NCBI GenBank assembly: GCA_964016885.1
Contig: OZ024740.1
Coordinates: 379,502,001 to 379,566,000, forward strand
From: Eledone cirrhosa
Taxonomy: Eukaryota
Direction: 5' to 3'
Length of the DNA: 64,000 bases
This document shows positions 7,756 to 49,704 of this stretch, one piece after another. The notes beneath the pieces were generated by a model. It saw only the letters and a list, made by a program, of their open reading frames with translations, searched no databases and was not told where the DNA came from. Position 1 is the first letter of the stretch. Every line of letters begins with the position of its first letter. Made by a program: the position numbers and the translations under genes.

Positions 7756-10700
7756 CTACAGGCTGATATAGAGAGAAGGCCCATTCACTCGGGCCATTCT
7801 CGCTACTTTCACCCACCTTTCATAAAACTTGCTGGGGTAGAGCACCTCTCTCTCCATTCTGATCCTTCTTCTAAAGTGGTACTTGATAAAAAAGACCAGT
7901 TGTTGGCCGGAGAGAAAGGTGTCTGACCTCAGCCATTTCAACCTTGTCCACCATACAACTTCTTTCGCCATAGCTATCACACAGAAGAAAACCGCCTCAC
8001 ATTCGTTTTTGAAAGGGGGAGGCGGTTTGATCGTGACAATGTTCTCGGTGGTCAACCGGATTGGTCCCACCCGCGACAGTAGTCGTTCCAGATAGCCCCA
8101 CAGGTCAGCAACGCCCGGGCAGTGTACGAATGCGTGTGCGACGGTTTCCTCGTCACGCACGCATCTTGGACAGATCTTCTTCGAGGGGTCCCTACCCGGG
8201 CGCCCGTGTCTGTAGAGCTTGTCCCGAACGGGTAGAGCTCCTCGGTAACATTGCCAAGCCAGGGACTTTTGGAAGTTGTCCATCGGTCCCGAGCCAAACG
8301 TCCTACCGAACAGACTGGCCAGCTCATCTTCCTCCAAGCCCAGAGCCTCTCCGAGAGCGTCGTCGCATTTACTGCGCACCAATCCTCTATAGAATGTTGA
8401 GGTTGAGTCTCCACTGATTGCCGGATCCGCTTGCCAGAGGGCCGTGAGCGCCTGGGCACATTCAATGTGCCAGTCGCCCACTTTTCTTGGTCTTTGCTTG
8501 ACCCAGGATTGCAGCTCGGTGAGTGAGACGAGTCTCGGAAAGGCTCGCCTCACAAACAGGGCCCACACCGGCTGACCGGTGAGGAATACCTGGAGGTGCC
8601 GTAGCCTTAATGCGTGTCTACGCATCGTCAGCCACGGCATCCCCAGCCCTCCGTTCGAAGGGTGTTGACAGCAGATGGATCTTCTCACCAAGGGAGCCCG
8701 CTTCTTCCAAAGAAATCGGAAGAGCGCGCGCTCCATTTTGGCGAGTGTTTTCTCTGGGCAAGGCACGACGGTCAAGCGGTAGTAGATGACGGACGCTATA
8801 TAAGCGTTCGCCACCTCCACTCGACCTTTCAGGGATAGTTTGCACTCGGCCCACTTCTGGGCGAGTGCAAACACCTTGCCCGTTACCTCGTCCCAGTTTT
8901 TCTCCACCTGGAGGTCCGGTCCGAACCAGACCCCGAGCAGCTTCACCGGTCCCTCCATCCAGCGTCCGACGATGCCGTCGGAGGGCATCGTTTTGCCCCT
9001 CCACGTCTCGAGTAGCAAACCGACGGACTTGTCCCGGTTCAGCTTGGCTCCTGTGAACCTTTCATATTCCTCCAGTAAGGTGCCGATCTGCCCGATTTCC
9101 GAGGCGCACGACACCATTACTGTCACGTCATCGGCGACACTGCTTTCCGCAATCCCGGTTCCAAGGGGATGCTCTGCAACAGCTCCAGCTTCTGCAGTAG
9201 TGGCTCGAGAGCCAGCACATACAGGAGGGAGGAGAGAGGGCATCCCTGTCGGATGGATCGCGTGATTTGGGACGGCTCCGACAGGTAGCCGTTCACCTTG
9301 ACCCTCGAGCAGGTGTTGCTGCTGTGCATTGCAGCAATCCAGCCCCTGAAAACGGGTCCGAAGCCTGCCGCCGCGAGCACCGCATCCAGGTACCGATGGT
9401 CAACCCTATCGAACGCCTTAGATTGATCCAAGTTGATCAGGGCCCCACCAAAGCCGGGTTCGTTCCCTACCCTCTCTACGATGTATCGCATGAGGTGGAG
9501 GTTGTCGTGTATGGACCTGGACGGGATTGCGCATGTCTGCGCTTCTCCCACCAGGTTCCCGACGACAAGCGCCAACCTCTTCTCGAACACCCTGGCCAAA
9601 ATCTTTAACTCTGTGTTTAGCAGAGTTATGGGCCTAAAGTTATCTATGTCATCCCCCTTGTTCTCGTCCTTCCTCACCAGCGTGACTACGCCCTTGGTCA
9701 CAGAACTGGGAATTCTCCCGTTCTGTTGCCAGTTGCAGTAGACCGCCTCGAGGAGACCGGAGAACAAGCCCGGCATCGCTACATAAAGTTCGTATGGTAG
9801 ACCATCGAGACCCGGATATTTGCGTTTGCCGCATTGGCTCAGCGCTTCCCCTATTTCAGCGGATGAAATCGGCCTCTCGCAGGACTTCGCCTCCCCGTCC
9901 TAGAGCCGCGCCAGACTGTCGAGGTATGGACCGAAATCCATGGCCCCACCCAGCCCGCCGCCCCTCCCGAACAGTCGTGCAAAGCGCCGTTGAAAGGCCG
10001 CGCTCATCCGCTCAGGTTCAAGGATCACGCGTCCATCCTGGTCCTTCAAAGACCGAATCGTGGACTTGTTCCACTTTTTGCCTCTGTCACTCGGGCCCAG
10101 CTAACAGCTTTGGCTCCCTCGTTACCCAGAGCACGTATTTTACTCCTGACAACGCAGCCCTCGTGCTTCGCATCAAAGAACTGGTCTAGGGCCGTTCTTG
10201 ATGCCAGCACGCCGGCCATGTTGCCACTCCTAATCGCCTCTTCTATTCTATTTGTTAATTCCCTTTTAGTTCTATTCCTATCTGATGCTAATTCCCGACT
10301 AAAACCTATCGATTCTATTCTAATTTCTCTCTTGAGAGAGCCCCACCACCTGCTGTTGACAATTGCCCCCGTCAAACGCTGCTTAACTAGTCTGCTAATC
10401 CGCTTACTGTAAGCTTTGTTTGTCGGTAAAGACAAGTTTAGCTTCCAGTAGCCGCGTCCCTGTCTATGAGTTCTATCGAGGTTGACCACTCCGGTCACCA
10501 ACTTGTGATCCGAATAGTCAACCATGAACATTCGTGGACAGCTTAATATGTCCCTATCCTTATTTCTAACTAGGAACCTATCTAGGTACGACCTAGATGT
10601 TCCGCTACGATTAGTCTACGTCCACAGTGGCACAGTCGGAAAATCTAGTCAATATCTATCGGCCAGATCAAATCGGCCGATTAATCGTTTGAGGCTGTTA

Positions 10701-19727: not shown

Positions 19728-19913
19728 ATCTATCTATCTATCTGTCTATCTATCTATCTATCTATCTAATTCTACAACTGTTTATATGCCCGTATATATG
19801 TGTGTATATACAAATAATAAATATTTATATCAATAGAATGTATAGAAGTAAACACGCTTTATATAAAAAGAAAGAGAAATACATGTATATTTACAAATAT
19901 TTAAACATATACG

Positions 19914-20020
<107 letters not shown>

Positions 20021-20255
20021 ATATATATATATATGTATATCTATATATGTATATATATATATTTCGTTTCTGAATTTGTTTAGCAAGATTCTTTATCTGA
20101 AATCGTGTGTTGAAACCGATATTGTTATACTTTGGGAGGGTCATGTTGCCAATAAGAAACACACGCACCAGTTGCTTTCACTTCAATTTATTATAATAAA
20201 TTTATAAATTTCTGGTTGGTTGGTTAGTTCCACAACCAGATAGTTGTTTATATAT

Positions 20256-20300
20256 AGTCATAGTTCTTTCGTCACACACTCTGTGACCTCTTCAGTGACT
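20256..20300 (-). ncRNA. Minimal type I hammerhead ribozyme in PLE pseudo-LTR
   Basis: Reverse complement of the 23841-23885 motif. Confidence 0.8.
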
Positions 20301-20451
20301 GGGGATTCCTTTCTTTGTTTCTGTGCCTCTCCTTTGTTCTGTCCTACGCCATTTTGTTTCTGTGTGTGTGTTGTGTGCTCAGTCTGCGCATGCGCCACAT
20401 CCGGGTGTCTGTGTGTGTTTATGTTCATTTATTTATTTGTTTATTTACATG

Positions 20452-22997
20452 TTACTGGTTGGTTGTTTGTTCTATGTGTGTGTGTGTTTTCATTTTGTAA
20501 GTTGTGATGTTGCTGTTCCACTCATATTTTCTATTTAATTTTGGTTGTAATTCTTTTATGTTTATTGCCTCTGTAATTTGTCTAAACATTGCGTCTTTTC
20601 TGTGTGTAGATTCTATTTTTATTTCTATGTTCTCTAATTTACTCTTGTGTTCTATTTTAGCATGTTGGTAGAGTACAGATGATTCTTTATTATCTTGAAG
20701 GTCTCGCCAGTGTTCATTTATCCGTTCCCCTACACTACGAGCTGTCTCACTTATGTACACTATATATTTGTCTCTACATTGTCCTTCAGTACATCTTATG
20801 CTATACACTACATTTCTAGTTTTACAGTTAATATGGGGGCTTATTTTACAGGTTATACATTTCTTATCTATACATGAGGGTCTTTGAAAAGGGTATGTCT
20901 TGCTAATAAGTGTTTTTACGGAGGTACCTGGTCTTTCTACTATCTTAATATTGAGTTTATGTTTATTTAGGGCCCTTCTAAATTTGTAAGCTAATTCACC
21001 TCTAGGGGTTGTATCGATGAACATTACACTCTGGTATTTATTGCTATCATACCATGAGTTTATTCTATTAGCCTTGTTCCTAGTTCTTTCTATTCTATTC
21101 CAAAATTTGCTCCTATACAAGGGGGAGGTCCCATTTATGTCATTATTTACCATTTTTTCCCATTTGGTTCTGGCTCCTCTATACACTCTGATTCTATCTC
21201 TCTGATTGTAGCCAGAGAACTGCATACGGTGGATGAAGTGTTGTATGTGTCTCTCTAGTTCTTCGGGGTTGCACATGCGGGACACATTTCTCATCACCCG
21301 TACCAAATCCGCAATCAGTATGTTGATTTTGGTATGGTCCGAAACGGCCGAGTTTCGGTGGATCAGATGTTTGGAAGTCATGGGTTTGGCATAATGGGAA
21401 TGGAGGATTTGTTTTTTGTTGTTAATGGTATCTAACCAGAGCTCTGTGTCTAGTACAGGTAATCGATGGTTGGGGTGTTTACTTGGGTAGTCTATAGTAA
21501 CTCTAATGCTCTGGTGGATGGAGTTTGCTATTTGCTGGATGCTTTCCATTGTGTTTTTCTCTAGTTCCTGACTGTTCTCTAGTGGGGGTGTCTTAACTAC
21601 GATGTTTATATCATCTACGTAGCGGGAGTACATTATCAGGGTTAAGGGGTCTTCTAATTGTTCTTTAAGTTTAAGTTTAAGTCTACTGTCCCACCATACC
21701 ATGAATAAGTTAGCTATGTCGCCTGCAATGCTAACACCAATGGCTGCTCCTTCCACTTGGGCATATGTTTTTCCATTAAATTTGAACATATGTTCCTTAA
21801 GGGTTAGTTTTATGCTGGCCCCTACCGCATGTGCAATCATTTTCTTCGGTTCATCGTGGTTTTCGGGTGTCCGTACGGCTCTGGTCCACCCGTTCCATCT
21901 ATCTGTGTGGGTTTTCTTGGCCATTGAGGTAATGGTAGGTGGTCTGCCTCTTGCTGGTCTTGTAGGGCACAGGTTGCTAAGGTCATATGTGTCTAGGTAA
22001 TTATTACTATAGGTAAGCTTAAGTAGGAGTCCCAGCTCACCGGTATCAATCCCACGGAACTCAACCTTGCTCTCACTGATCATTTCTACGCATTTCTCCA
22101 CAGCAAAATCCACGTCAATAGATGGATACAGGGACACAACATCCATACTGCCTATTATGCAGTTTGTTAGGTCCCCAGATCGGTTACTCACGCCGATTCT
22201 GCTGAGGAGGTCCTCCGTGCTGTCACATACATCTGGGGACATTTCAATGATGGGGCGTATGATCAGGGAGAGGAAGTAGGACAGCCTGTAGTTACTAGCA
22301 ATGTTAGCTCCACAGACTGGCCGTGTTGGTGGTCCCGCGACAGGGTCACAGCCCGTTTTATGGTCTTTTCGAAGCCCATACAACGCCGGCACGTCATTGT
22401 TCCAGGCCTGGAAGTTGTTGGCAGTCCTTTTGTTGGGCTGCATTATATTCGTCCACATCACCATATGGGCATTGAGGGCTTTTTCTCTATCCTCATGCTC
22501 CTGTGGTGTTACCTCTCTTGTGTTAGTGATGTGGGTTGCATTGCCTGGATGTAGTTTGGCAGGCTGTCAACCGACATTCTGCCAGACTTGTCTGTTGGAA
22601 AGCATGCTATCTCTCCATTACGTGAGCGCTGCATGAGCTTACGCAAGCCATTTGCAGATTTTTCTCCCAGTTGCTGGGCCTCCATTCTATTATGCTTCTT
22701 GCTATACTGTTCTATAATATTTCTAAGTTCGGATCTAGCTATACTAAATTGTGCTTCTGTTTGTTCATCGACCTGCGACGGCAATTGCGTGCGTTTGTTA
22801 AATGGTAAAGTCGTGGCGTGGAATCGTCGCAGGTCGAATGATTTATCGGAGGGATTATAAAACGTAGAGTTCCAGGCTGCTGCTTTATGTGTACTAGTGC
22901 TATTGTTATTGTTAGTTGTGTTGTTTCTATTTCTATTTCCACCAACAGCCTCATGGTTGTTTCTATGTCTCTCACAATTACTCCTATCTCTTTCCAC
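20452..22997 (-). pseudogene. PLE polyprotein: reverse transcriptase, Cys-rich linker, GIY-YIG endonuclease; 5'-truncated, one frameshift near 22535
   Basis: TDKSGR, LYGLRKDHK, TRPV, SMDVVSLYPSI, GAAIG, RYVDD, CIDKKCITC..C, VVYSIRC..YISETAR..ERINEH. Confidence 0.9.
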
Positions 22998-23840
22998 TGG
23001 CTCATTGTTGTTATCTACCCTATTTTGTGTGTCTGTGTGTTCGTCTTGGTTATTCTCTTAGGAACAAGGCTAATAGAATAAACTCATGGTATGATAGCAA
23101 TAAATACCAGAGTGTAATGTTCATCGATACAACCCCTAGAGGTGAATTAGCTTACAAATTTAGAAGGGCCCTAAATAAACATAAACTCAATATTAAGATA
23201 GTAGAAAGACCAGGTACCTCCGTAAAAACACTTATTAGCAAGACATACCCTTTTCAAAGACCCTCATGTATAGATAAGAAATGTATAACCTGTAAAATAA
23301 GCCCCCATATTAACTGTAAAACTAGAAATGTAGTGTATAGCATAAGATGTACTGAAGGACAATGTAGAGACAAAAATATAGTGTACATAGGTGAGACAGC
23401 TCGTAGTGTAGGGGAACGGATAAATGAACACTGGCGAGACCTTCAAGATAATAAAGAATCATCTGTACTCTACCAACATGCTAAAATAGAACACAAGAGT
23501 AAATTAGAGAACATAGAAATAAAAATAGAATCTACACACAGAAAAGACGCAATGTTTAGACAAATTACAGAGGCAATAAACATAAAATAATTACAACCAA
23601 AATTAAATAGAAAATATGAGTGGAACAGCAACATCACAACTTACAAAATGAAAACACACACACACATAGAACAAACAACCAACCAGTAACATGTAAATAA
23701 ACAAATAAATAAATGAACATAAACACACAAAGACACCCGGATGTGGCGCATGCGCAGACTGAGCACACAACACACACACAGAAACAAAATGGCGTAGGAC
23801 AGAACAAAGGAGAGGCACAGAAACAAAGAAAGGAATCCCC

Positions 23841-23885
23841 AGTCACTGAAGAGGTCACAGAGTGTGTGACGAAAGAACTATGACT
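23841..23885 (+). ncRNA. Minimal type I hammerhead ribozyme in PLE pseudo-LTR
   Basis: AGTCA-CTGAAGA-G-GTCACA gagtg TGTGAC-GAAA-GAAC-TA-TGACT: stem I AGTCA/TGACT, stem II GTCACA/TGTGAC, conserved core, very short stem III. Confidence 0.8.
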
Positions 23886-24039
23886 ATATATAAACAACTA
23901 TCTGGTTGTGGAACTAACCAACCAACCAGAAATTTATAAATTTATTATAATAAATTGAAGTGAAAGCAACTGGTGCGTGTGTTTCTTATTGGCAACATGA
24001 CCCTCCCAAAGTATAACAATATATATATATATATGCACG

Positions 24040-24170
<131 letters not shown>

Positions 24171-33250: not shown

Positions 33251-33592
33251 TGTGAACTAATTCTTTACACTAACTAGTAATTAATCCAGTTGTATAAAAC
33301 CTTGAAGGCACATGGCTTAGTGGTTAAAGCATTGGGCTTGCAATCGAAAGGTTGTGAGTTCAATTCTCGGACCGGGTGATGTGTTGTTTCCTTGAGCAAG
33401 ACACTTTATTTCACGTTACTCCAGTTTACTCAGCTGTAGAAATGAGTACCAGCCTGCCCGCCCAGCCAGTGGGATGGCGTTATCTTATGGCTAAAACAGC
33501 ATGACGTGCTGTGACCAGCGGCGCCGACTGGTCGGTCAAGGTGATAAAACATTGAACACATGTTAATTATCATAATTAATATATTCTGACAG

Positions 33593-33725
33593 GAGATGAT
33601 GCTGGTTTTGAGAGCCAAATATATAACAACAAGATTTGTAAAACACCAAATCTTAACCAATTAGCAAAACGCAGTGTGGTCTTTAACAGAGCCTATGCTT
33701 CAGTCAGCAGTTGCTCTCCAAGTCG
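33593..33725 (+). CDS. SGSH: Sulfamidase exon 2 (not in the ORF track)
   Basis: AG/GT bounded; GDDAGFESQIYNNKICKTPNLNQLAKRSVVFNRAYASVSSCSPSR, containing the formylglycine CxPxR motif. Confidence 0.95.
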
Positions 33726-34100
33726 GTAAGTATATCTTAGTTTACTATATAAACTTTGATCTTTCAGCATCAGATTCCTTTTTTCAATTCTTTCAGTGCC
33801 AGATTCATTATTGCCTTTTCAATTTACATTTTGTACTCTGATATTTGATGAAATATTTGATCTTCAGCTAAAAAAAAAAGTATATATCTGTGTATGTGTG
33901 TGTAAATATTACTCTCTAACCACCCCCACCACCACCACCCCCACCTCCACCATCAACATCACTATTGTCACCTATCATAACGACCACTACTACATTTCCC
34001 TTTGACAGGAAGGCTACCTTTCTGCATAAACTCAGTGACCATTATGTCCTCTTAATTATATATATATTCTAAAGAATATTAAATTAATCAATTAAATATA

Positions 34101-37100
34101 ATTAAGTCAAAGATGTACATCCATATATGTATACTGAAATACTAGTATGTATATGAATACACACACGTATACATATGTAGATGTACCAAGTTTTTTTTCA
34201 CTGATCACTTTACTGTGAGTGGCCAGCTATTCTGTATGAAAAGAATAGCTGGCCACTCACAGTAAAGTGATCAGTGAAAAAAAACTTGGTACATCTACAT
34301 ATGTATACGTGTGTGTATTCATATACATACTAGTATTTCAGTATACATATATGGATGTACATCTTTGACTTAATTGTTTGAGCGTCAGTCATACAAAAGT
34401 GAGTTACAAACGAAACAAAATTTAATTTCGTTTCGTTATTTCTTTTTATCGTCTCCGTTGAACCGGTACTTACTCACACTCTATGCAAGTTGGTCTGCCC
34501 ACTACTAATTTTCATAGAAAAAGCATATAGCGATATGTGCTTTTACGATTCTCTAGAGAGGCCGGAAGATAGGTAAATATTGCTGATGAGTTGTAACAAC
34601 AACGAAACTAGTTCAATATTCCTTGTCTGGCTTTCTGGAGAATAGAGGAAAGGTGTTTCCTCAAAAACCAGTATGACTCTAAAAACCGGTTTGTCTGTGT
34701 GTTTACATACAGAATAGCTGGCCACTCACAGTAAAGTGATCAGTGAAAAAAAACTTGGTACATCTACATATGTATACGTGTGTGTATTCATATACATACT
34801 AGTATTTCAGTATACATATATGGATGTACATCTTTGACTTAATTGTTTGAGCGTCAGTCATACAAAAGTGAGTTACAAACGAAACAAAATTTAATTTCGT
34901 TTCGTTATTTCTTTTTATCGTCTCCGTTGAACCGGTACTTACTCACACTCTATGCAAGTTGGTCTGCCCACTACTAATTTTCATAGAAAAAGCATATAGC
35001 GATATGTGCTTTTACGATTCTCTAGAGAGGCCGGAAGATAGGTAAATATTGCTGATGAGTTGTAACAACAACGAAACTAGTTCAATATTCCTTGTCTGGC
35101 TTTCTGGAGAATAGAGGAAAGGTGTTTCCTCAAAAACCAGTATGACTCTAAAAACCGGTTTGTCTGTGTGTTTACATACAGAATAGCTGGCCACTCACAG
35201 TAAAGTGATCAGTGAAAAAAAGAAGAAAAAAAAACTTGGTACATCTACATATGTATACGTGTGTGTATTCATATACATACTAGTATTTCAGTATACATAT
35301 ATGGATGTACATCTTTGACTTAATTGTTTGAGCGTCAGTCATACAAAAGTGAGTTACAAACGAAACAAAATTTAATTTCGTTTCGTTATTTCTTTTTATC
35401 GTCTCCGTTGAACCGGTACTTACTCACACTCTATGCAAGTTGGTCTGCCCACTACTAATTTTCATAGAAAAAGCATATAGCGATATGTGCTTTTACGATT
35501 CTCTAGAGAGGCCGGAAGATAGGTAAATATTGCTGATGAGTTGTAACAACAACGAAACTAGTTCAATATTCCTTGTCTGGCTTTCTGGAGAATAGAGGAA
35601 AGGTGTTTCCTCAAAAACCAGTATGACTCTAAAAACCGGTTTGTCTGTGTGTTTACATACAGAATAGCTGGCCACTCACAGTAAAGTGATCAGTGAAAAA
35701 AAAACTTGGTACATCTACATATGTATACGTGTGTGTATTCATATACATACTAGTATTTCAGTATACATATATGGATGTACATCTTTGACTTAATTGTTTG
35801 AGCGTCAGTCATACAAAAGTGAGTTACAAACGAAACAAAATTTAATTTCGTTTCGTTATTTCTTTTTATCGTCTCCGTTGAACCGGTACTTACTCACACT
35901 CTATGCAAGTTGGTCTGCCCACTACTAATTTTCATAGAAAAAGCATATAGCGATATGTGCTTTTACGATTCTCTAGAGAGGCCGGAAGATAGGTAAATAT
36001 TGCTGATGAGTTGTAACAACAACGAAACTAGTTCAATATTCCTTGTCTGGCTTTCTGGAGAATAGAGGAAAGGTGTTTCCTCAAAAACCAGTATGACTCT
36101 AAAAACCGGTTTGTCTGTGTGTTTACATACAGAATAGCTGGCCACTCACAGTAAAGTGATCAGTGAAAAAAAAACTTGGTACATCTACATATGTATACGT
36201 GTGTGTATTCATATACATACTAGTATTTCAGTATACATATATGGATGTACATCTTTGACTTAATTGTTTGAGCGTCAGTCATACAAAAGTGAGTTACAAA
36301 CGAAACAAAATTTAATTTCGTTTCGTTATTTCTTTTTATCGTCTCCGTTGAACCGGTACTTACTCACACTCTATGCAAGTTGGTCTGCCCACTACTAATT
36401 TTCATAGAAAAAGCATATAGCGATATGTGCTTTTACGATTCTCTAGAGAGGCCGGAAGATAGGTAAATATTGCTGATGAGTTGTAACAACAACGAAACTA
36501 GTTCAATATTCCTTGTCTGGCTTTCTGGAGAATAGAGGAAAGGTGTTTCCTCAAAAACCAGTATGACTCTAAAAACCGGTTTGTCTGTGTGTTTACATAC
36601 AGAATAGCTGGCCACTCACAGTAAAGTGATCAGTGAAAAAAAACTTGGTACATCTACATATGTATACGTGTGTGTATTCATATACATACTAGTATTTCAG
36701 TATACATATATGGATGTACATCTTTGACTTAATTGTTTGAGCGTCAGTCATACAAAAGTGAGTTACAAACGAAACAAAATTTAATTTCGTTTCGTTATTT
36801 CTTTTTATCGTCTCCGTTGAACCGGTACTTACTCACACTCTATGCAAGTTGGTCTGCCCACTACTAATTTTCATAGAAAAAGCATATAGCGATATGTGCT
36901 TTTACGATTCTCTAGAGAGGCCGGAAGATAGGTAAATATTGCTGATGAGTTGTAACAACAACGAAACTAGTTCAATATTCCTTGTCTGGCTTTCTGGAGA
37001 ATAGAGGAAAGGTGTTTCCTCAAAAACCAGTATGACTCTAAAAACCGGTTTGTCTGTGTGTTTACATACAGAATAGCTGGCCACTCACAGTAAAGTGATC

Positions 37101-38210
37101 AGTGAAAAAAAACTTGGTACATCTACATATGTATACGTGTGTGTATTCATATACATACTAGTATTTCAGTATACATATATGGATGTACATCTTTGACTTA
37201 ATTGTTTGAGCGTCAGTCATACAAAAGTGAGTTACAAACGAAACAAAATTTAATTTCGTTTCGTTATTTCTTTTTATCGTCTCCGTTGAACCGGTACTTA
37301 CTCACACTCTATGCAAGTTGGTCTGCCCACTACTAATTTTCATAGAAAAAGCATATAGCGATATGTGCTTTTACGATTCTCTAGAGAGGCCGGAAGATAG
37401 GTAAATATTGCTGATGAGTTGTAACAACAACGAAACTAGTTCAATATTCCTTGTCTGGCTTTCTGGAGAATAGAGGAAAGGTGTTTCCTCAAAAACCAGT
37501 ATGACTCTAAAAACCGGTTTGTCTGTGTGTTTACATACAGAATAGCTGGCCACTCACAGTAAAGTGATCAGTGAAAAAAAACTTGGTACATCTACATATG
37601 TATACGTGTGTGTATTCATATACATACTAGTATTTCAGTATACATATATGGATGTACATCTTTGACTTAATTGTTTGAGCGTCAGTCATACAAAAGTGAG
37701 TTACAAACGAAACAAAATTTAATTTCGTTTCGTTATTTCTTTTTATCGTCTCCGTTGAACCGGTACTTACTCACACTCTATGCAAGTTGGTCTGCCCACT
37801 ACTAATTTTCATAGAAAAAGCATATAGCGATATGTGCTTTTACGATTCTCTAGAGAGGCCGGAAGATAGGTAAATATTGCTGATGAGTTGTAACAACAAC
37901 GAAACTAGTTCAATATTCCTTGTCTGGCTTTCTGGAGAATAGAGGAAAGGTGTTTCCTCAAAAACCAGTATGACTCTAAAAACCGGTTTGTCTGTGTGTT
38001 TACATACAGAATAGCTGGCCACTCACAGTAAAGTGATCAGTGAAAAAAAACTTGGTACATCTACATATGTATACGTGTGTGTATTCATATACATACTAGT
38101 ATTTCAGTATACATATATGGATGTACATCTTTGACTTAATTGTTTGAGCGTCAGTCATACAAAAGTGAGTTACAAACGAAACAAAATTTAATTTCGTTTC
38201 GTTATTTCTT
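34101..38210 (+). mobile_element. Tandem array of ~469-bp hammerhead-containing units (candidate non-LTR retrozyme) in SGSH intron 2
   Basis: Units start at 34242, 34711, 35180, 35661, 36131, 36601, 37070, 37539 and 38008 (last one partial); inverted 138-bp piece at 34101-34238; 13-bp TSD TCAATTAAATATA (34088-34100, 38211-38223). Confidence 0.88.
34571..34623 (+). ncRNA. Type I hammerhead ribozyme, unit 1 (copies start at 35040, 35521, 35991, 36461, 36930, 37399, 37868)
   Basis: AATATTG-CTGATGA-GTTGT aaca ACAAC-GAAA-CTAG-TT-CAATATT: 7-bp stem I, 5-bp stem II, intact CUGAUGA/GAAA core, palindromic short stem III; predicted cleavage after GUU at 34613. Confidence 0.9.
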
Positions 38211-38272
38211 TCAATTAAATATATTTTTGCTTCAAATCATGTTTTTTTTTTGTTTTTTCTTTTACCTTACAG

Positions 38273-38406
38273 TTCTACAATACTAACTGGGTTGCCACAA
38301 CACGAAAATGGCATGTATGGACTTCATCATAAGGTTCATCACTTCAACTCTTTTGACCATGTCAAAAGTTTACCCTTAATTTTACGGAAAGCTAATATAA
38401 GGACAG
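38273..38406 (+). CDS. SGSH: Sulfamidase exon 3
   Basis: [37 protein letters not shown]; AG/GT bounded, phases consistent. Confidence 0.95.
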
Positions 38407-47926: not shown

Positions 47927-49077
47927 GTATAACTAACTTTTATATGAGACTGATGTTTAGAACACAATGTAAAAAATGTTCTTATATACAATTAGTCTTT
48001 AAAGTGAGAGGTTATGTAGAATGGAAGTTTCAAATTAATTAAATATATTTAAATAAAGTTGATTATGAAATTTATATTTAGTAAAATGAATTATGCTTCA
48101 GTTCAAGGGAAAAGATAAAAGTCCAAATCTTATTCTGTATTTACATTTGTATTTGATACTGAAATAATACTATTTAAGTGGTAGGAATTAAAAGATTTCC
48201 CTGGGTTTTGAGAAACAGGGACTCTTTCTCTCTGAAGAATGCTTTATTGAAGATGTTTGTCGGAAGCATGCTGTTACATGCAAGTAAAACTGGGGGCAGT
48301 AAAGTCAAAGAACATACAAAATGGAAGAGGAATGAGTTAATTCAGCTACTCATTAGGTTTCATCTACTAAAATACAACAAACAGTTAAATATAATCTAAT
48401 GGGTTTACAATGTAAATTTGATAAATATTTCAAGTACCAAAGAGAATGAAAGAGAATTATAATAATATCTTTACTGAATGTGGATTTATGTCCTATGCTA
48501 GAGAAAAAATGGTGCAATAAGTTGATATTGAAAAGTACAAAGATAGAGCAAGAAAATTTGGAATAAAGTAGCGAGATTGGATGTTTAAAAATAAGTTCTT
48601 ACAAATAAGGTGCAGGATTGTGAGGAGGGGAAGGAGATTTATCTGATTATTGGTCCAAATAATTGTTTCTACTTTAGGTACAAGGCCAACATTTTTTTGG
48701 GGGGAGGTCGATTACATGTGCATTACAGGTACTTCATTTTACCGACACCGTAAAGATAAAAGGCAAAACTAAGCTTGGCGAGATTTGAACTCAGAACGTA
48801 ACTATGCAATGCAGCTATATTGCATCAATGTTCTCCTAGGGTATAGAACCAAGTTGCAAACTATTTCAATATCTCACATTATGAAAAGAATATTTTAATC
48901 AAATATTTTCTCTCATAATTCATACGAGACCCTCAAATTACAGAACTGATGAACCTATTCTTGTATATAGTAAATATTAAATATAAACTGCTATTCATAG
49001 TGCTGATGATGTTGGAGTGAGGGCAAATATCCCTAAATGTATTATTTTGTTTTCATATTTTATCTTTTCATTTTCAG

Positions 49078-49704
49078 AGAAGTGACTCATTTGTTTCCCT
49101 TTTGGATATAGTGCCTACTATATTGGATTGGTTCCAAATACCATATCCTCATTATAAGCTGTTCAGAAATCACATTAGATTGACTGGAAATTCTCTCTTA
49201 CCATTGTTACACTCTAAATCTGAAAATGATATTAATCAACTGTCAAAACAGGTATCAGCTGTGTATTCAAGTCACAACCTTCATGAAGTTACAATGTATT
49301 ACCCTATGAGATCTGTTCGTACATCAAATTATAAACTGATTCATAACCTCAATTACAAAATGCCATATCCTATTGATCAAGATTTCTATTTGTCTTCAAC
49401 CTTTCTTGACTTACTGAATCGTACCAGATCAAAATTACCAACTAAATGGTCAAAAACTCTGCACCAATATTATTACAGGGATCAATGGGAGCTTTATGAT
49501 ATCCACAATGATACAGCTGAACTCATTAATGTAGCATATAAACCTGAGTATAAAACTATATTAACATCTCTAAAGAATTTGTTACACCATTGGCAAAATG
49601 TGACAAATGATCCCTGGATCTGTGGTCCTGGTGCTGTACTTGAAAATAGTGGATATTATAAATTCAATCCCCATTGTATGGCATTGGATAATGAATTAAT
49701 GTAA
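49078..49704 (+). CDS. SGSH: Sulfamidase exon 7 (last coding exon)
   Basis: SLLDIVPTILDWF...HEVTMYYPMRS...PIDQDFY...DPWIC...DNELM*; the joined exons give 1554 nt in frame (517 aa); AATAAA signals follow. Confidence 0.95.
   Translation, partial: RSDSFVSLLDIVPTILDWFQIPYPHYKLFRNHIRLTGNSLLPLLHSKSENDINQLSKQVSAVYSSHNLHEVTMYYPMRSVRTSNYKLIHNLNYKMPYPIDQDFYLSSTFLDLLNRTRSKLPTKWSKTLHQYYYRDQWELYDIHNDTAELINVAYKPEYKTILTSLKNLLHHWQNVTNDPWICGPGAVLENSGYYKFNPHCMALDNELM

Follow-up and report, generated by a model that had tools for sequence, protein, structure and literature searches.

Insertion at the locus and its host gene

The window, meaning the whole stretch of 64,000 nucleotides that was analysed, contains a 4.1 kb insertion at 34101-38210, bounded by both copies of a 13-nt target duplication. 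The copies, at 34088-34100 and 38211-38223, are identical (TCAATTAAATATA) and flank the array, for which the preliminary description had named a TSD. The chance of such an agreement is about 4e-5, a rough figure taken over 100 edge placements, and the same 13-mer was found once more in the window, on the minus strand.

The insertion is formed by two arms with both 3' ends pointing outward. The short arm (34101-34238, minus strand) covers unit positions 465-469 and then 1-133/134, and its 3' end lies leftward at the short (S) end of the family. The 134 nt at 34100-34233 are, at 100% identity, the reverse complement of the array start at 34242-34375, while the last 5 nt of the unit are found in reverse complement at 34234-34238. 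The inverted copy of the start of unit 1 reported earlier for 34101-34238 was thereby recovered as the template-derived arm, and it is followed by three extra A (34239-34241) between the arms, which have no explanation from the unit. The long arm (34242-38210, plus strand) is an array of eight head-to-tail units of 469, 469, 481, 470, 470, 469, 469 and 469 nt and a further 203 nt, its 3' end being the long (L) end. A 69-nt 'tail' (38142-38210, plus strand; unit 135-203) is present at the long end only, and includes a predicted 12-13-bp hairpin also kept in a sister family of 420-nt units. The units are identical except for the length of one A-run. The variant C at unit position 201 is present in 9/9 passes of the long arm; in the same 22-nt context it has 19 matches in the genome, nine in the window array and ten lone, and it occurs in no other multi-unit array of the assembly. 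The longest ATG frames of the 469-nt unit are 19 and 23 aa on the two strands, LTRs are absent from the repeat, and the insertion ends fall within the unit.

Exon prediction places the array within a sense-strand intron of a sulfamidase-like (SGSH-like) gene. The predicted exon upstream of the insertion (33593-33725, plus strand) has AG/GT edges and matches positions 10-52 of the Pfam Sulfatase profile with an E-value of 2e-4, below the cut-off, and the next predicted exon (38273-38406, plus strand), 62 nt past the array end and in frame with the previous one, matches profile positions 55-94 (E 0.019). A downstream exon at 49075-49701 was recognised from a match to PDB 4mhx (E 5e-60). Upstream of the first predicted exon, a tRNA-like head at 33313-33370 (plus strand; Rfam 29.8 bits) is probably part of a SINE. 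Minus the insertion, the intron is 424 nt long, and the predicted pre-mRNA gains a 134-bp perfect hairpin from the insertion. In another sample, three runs have a single-copy contig that corresponds to 33730-34100 with 0-1 differences, matches right up to the end of the left duplication copy at 34100 and then continues with 221 unlike letters. The array seems to be absent from that sample, as with an empty allele. With eight predicted sense-strand hammerheads in a short intron and an apparently polymorphic insertion, the locus is a natural test of the effect on the host transcript.

Predicted hammerhead and other features of the unit

A type I hammerhead was predicted in unit 1 at 34565-34636 (plus strand), with the cut at GUU after 34613, i.e. 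after unit position 372. Its match to Rfam HH9 (E-value 5e-8, 37.7 bits) falls short of the gathering score of 52, and its fold has a z-score of -4.9. A pattern search located the hammerhead core at 34583, 35052, 35533, 36003, 36473, 36942, 37411 and 37880, thus in eight of the eight full units, and the core is kept also in the 420-nt sister family. The ribozyme had been described as a minimal hammerhead; its type I class stands, while the predicted structure is HH9-like, with an extended and bulged stem I and a palindromic stem III of 2 bp. The earlier observations that the array ends do not coincide with the cut site and that a poly(A) tail is lacking at the array were both confirmed. The circular fold of the unit is predicted to be 66% paired. 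We infer that the 469-nt monomer is transcribed, self-cleaved and circularised.

An octamer-like word was noticed at 34481-34488, where the sister family has the exact ATGCAAAT, and a possible proximal-element-like word lies at 34256-34275. An snRNA-type promoter is known from newt satellite 2, and such words may belong to one.

Family census and end pairing

The 469-nt non-coding repeat has at least about 2,000 insertions in the genome of 3.0 Gb. A genome search gave 568 candidates, of which 35 were scored and 33 such loci besides the window were examined. Exact patterns found 1,980 matches when the long end was required to have TA directly after it, and 46 for the short end, covering the window subfamily only; reversed controls found none. 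Of the first 100 listed long-end matches on contig 1, 92 were also examined, as were 28 of the 46 matches to the short end. The tabulation of genomic copies that had been proposed in the preliminary description was in this way made for 157 clusters at 154 loci (numbered with the prefix L below), with 86-100% identity to the window unit.

Two arms were present in 108 clusters, and as claimed earlier for the window locus, the 3' ends pointed outward on both arms in 108/108. Nine of these clusters extend past the examined DNA and end pairing was judged on the remaining 99. A short and a long end were combined in 94/99 insertions (one being a local duplicate), the short ends lying mostly at 133-138 and the long ends at 203-211, and no long+long or short+short pair was found among the 99. 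The five others comprise a locus with an assembly gap, a locus at which BLAST extended the short end too far, and three loci with another end. Among insertions sampled irrespective of end type, the short+long combination was found in 21/23 and in 21/21 of those with both ends placed (p-value 5e-7 under independent ends). The corresponding counts were 24/25 and 33/35 in the sets selected by long ends, one insertion being a local duplicate, and 16/16 in the set selected by short ends. Altogether 248 of the 254 placed 3' ends were inside the two end windows. The family termini are accordingly at about unit 134 (short) and 208 (long), about 70 nt apart. A single-armed appearance was shown by 49 clusters, the stray L261 included, several of them having mini-arms of 10-25 nt.

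Contigs of a public run had TA runs joined at unit 134, 138 and 208, which indicates that the ends are not an assembly artefact. A self-joined contig of the unit in one run of another organism was left out of account, since a tandem array would give the same. Loci L286 and L179 were rejected as hybrids, both representing mere adjacency within one TA tract.

Fixed ends in other copies, with terminal inverted repeats (TIRs), Helitron termini or LINE-type tails, had been named as the finding that would point to a different mobiliser. Fixed outer ends were indeed found, yet they are asymmetric, and the short/long difference is the tail signature of Penelope-like elements (PLEs), not that of TIR, Helitron or LINE elements. 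The family has no poly(A) or simple-repeat 3' tail of the SINE/LINE type, having two internal ends instead, and lacks the symmetric termini of a TIR DNA transposon (Foldback or MITE), as the ends differ by about 70 nt and the junctions vary by locus.

Target sites

TATATA was found within 14 nt of 50 of the 55 ends in the sample taken irrespective of end type, with the window locus among the exceptions. The target duplication of the window is readable because this locus is one of the few with a non-microsatellite target. A proxy for duplication length had its mode at 12 nt (23/93 loci), and it was at least 11 nt in 86/93 loci as against 69% of shuffled flank pairs. The TA tracts flanking L070, L060-L061, L038 and L065 are often interrupted at regular intervals, a pattern suggestive of repeated copying of the duplicated target.

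Inner junctions and template

Microhomology at the inner junctions was scored on 40 loci with at least 95% identity and a usable unit of their own. It was at least 1 nt in 25 of the 28 insert-free junctions, compared with 47% by chance, and inserts were present at 12/40 junctions. Between the arms of L280 (694-758) there is a 65-nt GC-rich foreign insert, for which no Rfam match was found. Apart from one local duplicate and a hot spot in a hairpin, the inner junctions differ between loci. Fold-back had been suggested from the window locus; as a general rule it failed, only 17 of 107 junctions, the window locus included, being near mirror-symmetric (5.7 expected), with arms reaching 14 units on either side. 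Six of these 17 sit in the one hairpin at unit 160-177. In 7/93 loci neither arm contains the sequence of the other, which shows that one arm was not copied from the other there, and the longer arm was the short-end arm in 41/93 loci. Both arms may be long together.

The 5' ends were at the predicted cut site in 7/245 cases, compared with 5.7 expected, and thus show no pile-up. As the arms also cross this site up to 14 times, a linear monomer cut at this site was not the template. Where a long-end arm stops early, it does so inside the tail in 14/17 cases, as against 4/13 of the short-end arms (p-value 0.006, post hoc), which would agree with occupation of the short site.

No insertion combined arms of different subfamilies: divergence between the arms was at most 1.43% in 24/24 true pairs and in 9% of 543 cross pairs, a test that may be weakened if subfamilies were active at different times. 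Among the variants fixed in one arm, 418/422 were present also in the other and four were arm-specific, and all seven locus-private fixed variants covered by both arms were present in both. Private variants were confined to a single unit in 112/158 cases, which argues against later homogenisation, and 14/158, in some older arrays, were common to a few neighbouring units.

Penelope-like elements and the sister family

The PLE of the window, here PLE-A, has the same geometry as the array, as had been noted for 20063-24021, and extends to 24022. Its long arm (20063-23058, minus strand) carries a 5'-truncated and frameshifted RT and GIY-YIG ORF, recognised from weak Pfam RVT_1 and GIY-YIG matches below the cut-off, and a pseudo-LTR (pLTR) with a hammerhead. 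The short arm (23059-24022, plus strand) is a 964-nt inverted copy of 20119-21082 at 100% identity, and the extra tail of 56 nt (20063-20118) is on the left side only. No ordinary target-site duplication is readable at PLE-A because its flanks are mirror-image microsatellites (19907-20064 and 24009-24166, 86% over 158 nt). At L177 (780-850) a 38-nt stretch of neighbouring DNA has been copied inverted into the junction. Considering these flanks and L177, flanking DNA may be copied by (TA)n target ends that fold back.

The same end rule was found in another PLE, PLE-B, which is very young (40/40 scored matches 100% identical). Its copies end at ORF +24-26 or +69-84, with one end of each kind in 11/11 two-armed loci, in (TA)n. 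PLE-B (L045:725-4770, L081-L140) has a tandem period of about 4.1 kb, and its ORF has an extended asparagine-rich region like that described for rotifer PLEs in the available text of PMC3846280. The third element, PLE-C, is young and Neptune-like and likewise ends at two positions, separated by about 38 nt; the clade names of the PLEs are based on motifs only.

The preliminary description had proposed to find an autonomous partner by aligning the unit to PLE pseudo-LTRs. In the six elements compared, namely PLE-A, -B and -C and three other PLE neighbours, this gave no homology beyond TA-like stretches. The hammerhead stem III and the U-rich long end of PLE-C are nearer to both retrozyme families than are those of PLE-A and -B, a weak hint that the helper could be Neptune-like.

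No clean PLE-retrozyme hybrid was present among the 154 loci. The candidate at L045, with a PLE-B arm and a retrozyme arm, is one of three segmental duplicates. Two of the duplicates have private PLE variants in common but differ in their junctions, while the third consists of PLE sequence only, its ends being a normal short+long pair. The hybrid itself is short+short. A later insertion plus deletion is the simpler reading. The candidate at L177 was rejected as well, the PLE piece being an inverted copy of the adjoining PLE-B insertion with the same junction and thus copied from target DNA. The segmental duplication at L045 also includes, at 7756-9156 (plus strand), an uninterrupted frame of 466 aa that by eye resembles tryptophanase or tyrosine phenol-lyase.

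The sister family of 420-nt units, with 2,082 candidates, aligns along the whole 469-nt unit (L057:1690-2330, L187-L216), with about 71% identity in the core. It ends at positions homologous to the short and long ends, and nine among 30 loci combine the two; one locus, L212, appears to have two long ends, across a 246-nt gap. L207 and L208 contain many tandem 83-nt sub-repeats of this family.

Proposed mechanism and alternatives

The outward arms, the short/long pairing, the (TA)n targets, the duplication of 12-13 nt, the variable microhomology junctions and the identical rule in PLEs make a borrowed PLE enzyme likely. In the proposed sequence of events, the 469-nt RNA would be transcribed, self-cleaved and circularised, and a PLE protein would bind it. 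The PLE endonuclease/reverse transcriptase would then nick AT-rich DNA on both strands, with about 12 nt between the nicks, which would prime about 70 nt apart on the same RNA molecule. Rolling-circle, strand-displacing synthesis could produce the multi-unit arms, and the two cDNA ends would finally be joined by microhomology repair. As a whole, with a borrowed enzyme, two nicks, two internal priming sites and one RNA that is probably a circle, this explanation is considered probable. Its parts differ in strength: that a PLE enzyme was responsible is very likely, that there were two priming events rather than a self-copy can be held with equally high confidence, and that the template was a circular monomer and not an uncut multimer is fairly likely. 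Points against the explanation are the lack of homology between the unit and the six PLEs compared, the lack of clean hybrids among the 154 loci, the five two-armed loci outside the pairing, the 48 single-armed clusters besides L261, the apparent two long ends at L212, the four arm-specific variants and the hammerhead score below the Rfam threshold. The preliminary description had put forward integration in trans by a PLE enzyme with a circle or a multimer as its template, and this fits every test run. The PLE of the window, a candidate helper at most, shares its geometry with the unit, and no sequence beyond TA-like stretches.

With the same enzyme and double priming, the template could have been a linear transcript of a parent array, long and uncut. 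The anole PLE does accept unprocessed RNA in vitro, its ribozyme being dispensable (available text of PMC11167929), and this makes a circle less necessary. The cleavage in vitro of only 1/9 Xenopus retrozymes (bioRxiv 10.64898/2026.07.22.740005, available text) and the unequal length of the A-run between units point in the same direction. A linear template is nevertheless regarded as unlikely: locus-private variants common to both arms, together with arms running through up to 14 cut sites, favour one circular template, as does the absence of a parent array with C201 from the assembly, even if the parent may be in another individual. Linear copying should moreover shorten the arrays in each generation, yet arms were repeatedly found to reach lengths of up to 14 units, and an insertion may have two long arms.

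A single cDNA that folds back and copies itself, the endonuclease cutting the second end afterwards, has been suggested for rotifer PLEs (PMC3846280, in its available text). Palindromes at PLE junctions have been published, and the near mirror-symmetric junctions, with the window locus among them, agree with such self-priming. The other 90 of the 107 junctions do not, the short-end arm is often the longer one, and the six near-mirror cases in the hairpin at unit 160-177 lie where two cDNA ends would anneal anyway. The seven non-nested loci exclude self-priming as the general route; it may have a minority role, and as an explanation of the family it is improbable. A third alternative is a DNA-level element of the Foldback or MITE type, or LINE (L1) twin priming, with the arrays grown later by unequal exchange. 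Foldback elements too have inverted arms of tandem repeats together with a target-site duplication, and variants common to neighbouring units in some older arrays fit such growth. This explanation is the least probable of those considered and is highly doubtful: the ends are asymmetric, the junctions locus-specific and poly(A) is lacking, both arms overlap the same 3' region, and most private variants are in one unit only.

Going back to the borrowed PLE enzyme, a more specific version is that it is a dimer, which would copy one RNA circle from both nicks at once at sites 70 nt apart, for up to 14 rounds each, recognising the shape of the RNA and not its sequence. This version is tentative, being somewhat doubtful as it stands. 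If true, it would account for the inverted-plus-tail structure of all PLEs, which has long been puzzling, and a circular RNA would have been written into an animal genome.

Comparison with known systems

By its sequence, the 469-nt repeat belongs to the animal non-LTR retrozymes. In the available text of Cervera and de la Peña (2020; PMC7229834), these are AT-rich, occur as dispersed tandem units with a single type I hammerhead in each, lack an ORF and have a target-site duplication of more than 4 bp, and PLEs are proposed as the helper and circles as the template. Non-LTR retrozymes are also defined by self-cleavage and by expression as linear and circular monomer RNA, which are predictions for the present repeat. 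The unit is longer (469 nt compared with about 170-400 nt), and the two-armed layout with fixed short and long ends is found here and is not described in the available text of that paper. In a preprint (bioRxiv 10.64898/2026.07.22.740005), vertebrate retrozymes were concluded to use PLE machinery on the basis of co-occurrence and pLTR homology, the latter in 24/57 Xenopus families, and local amplification into tandems was favoured. Its available text includes no analysis of insertion structure and no mention of a 'tail'; here the evidence is the insertion footprint, and pLTR homology was not found. In the openly accessible main texts searched, no description of two-armed retrozyme insertions was found. 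A PLE helper and a circular template for retrozymes are known as proposals, and the new element is mechanistic evidence based on footprints, of which none was found in print.

The inverted copy, the tail and the (TA)n bias are the marks of PLEs (PMC8557442, available text). In the experiments of PMC11167929 (available text), AT-rich DNA was nicked and extended on both strands by a purified PLE, which began synthesis at two sites within the RNA, as far apart as the genomic tail is long. Endonuclease-positive PLEs share with the retrozyme an inverted 5'-truncated second copy, a tail at one end, the (TA)n bias, a hammerhead and two internal priming sites. Unlike them, the retrozyme has no protein, its tail is about 70 nt instead of 30-40 nt, and its arms are multi-unit concatemers. 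The non-autonomous head-to-tail multi-copy PLE derivatives of Chlamys resemble their helper at the 3' end in the published account available, and no such resemblance of the 469-nt unit to the six PLEs compared was found. The strict pairing of one long and one short end, which was counted here and is not stated for PLEs in the available texts of PMC8557442 and PMC11167929, constrains how PLEs form inverted insertions, and the two exact priming sites proposed on the 469-nt RNA allow a direct test by the published in vitro PLE assay. In the papers found, the spread of retrozymes has been argued from co-occurrence and homology, to which this family adds a countable footprint. With its inverted second copy, one-sided tail and AT-rich or (TA)n target, the 469-nt repeat works like a non-autonomous PLE.
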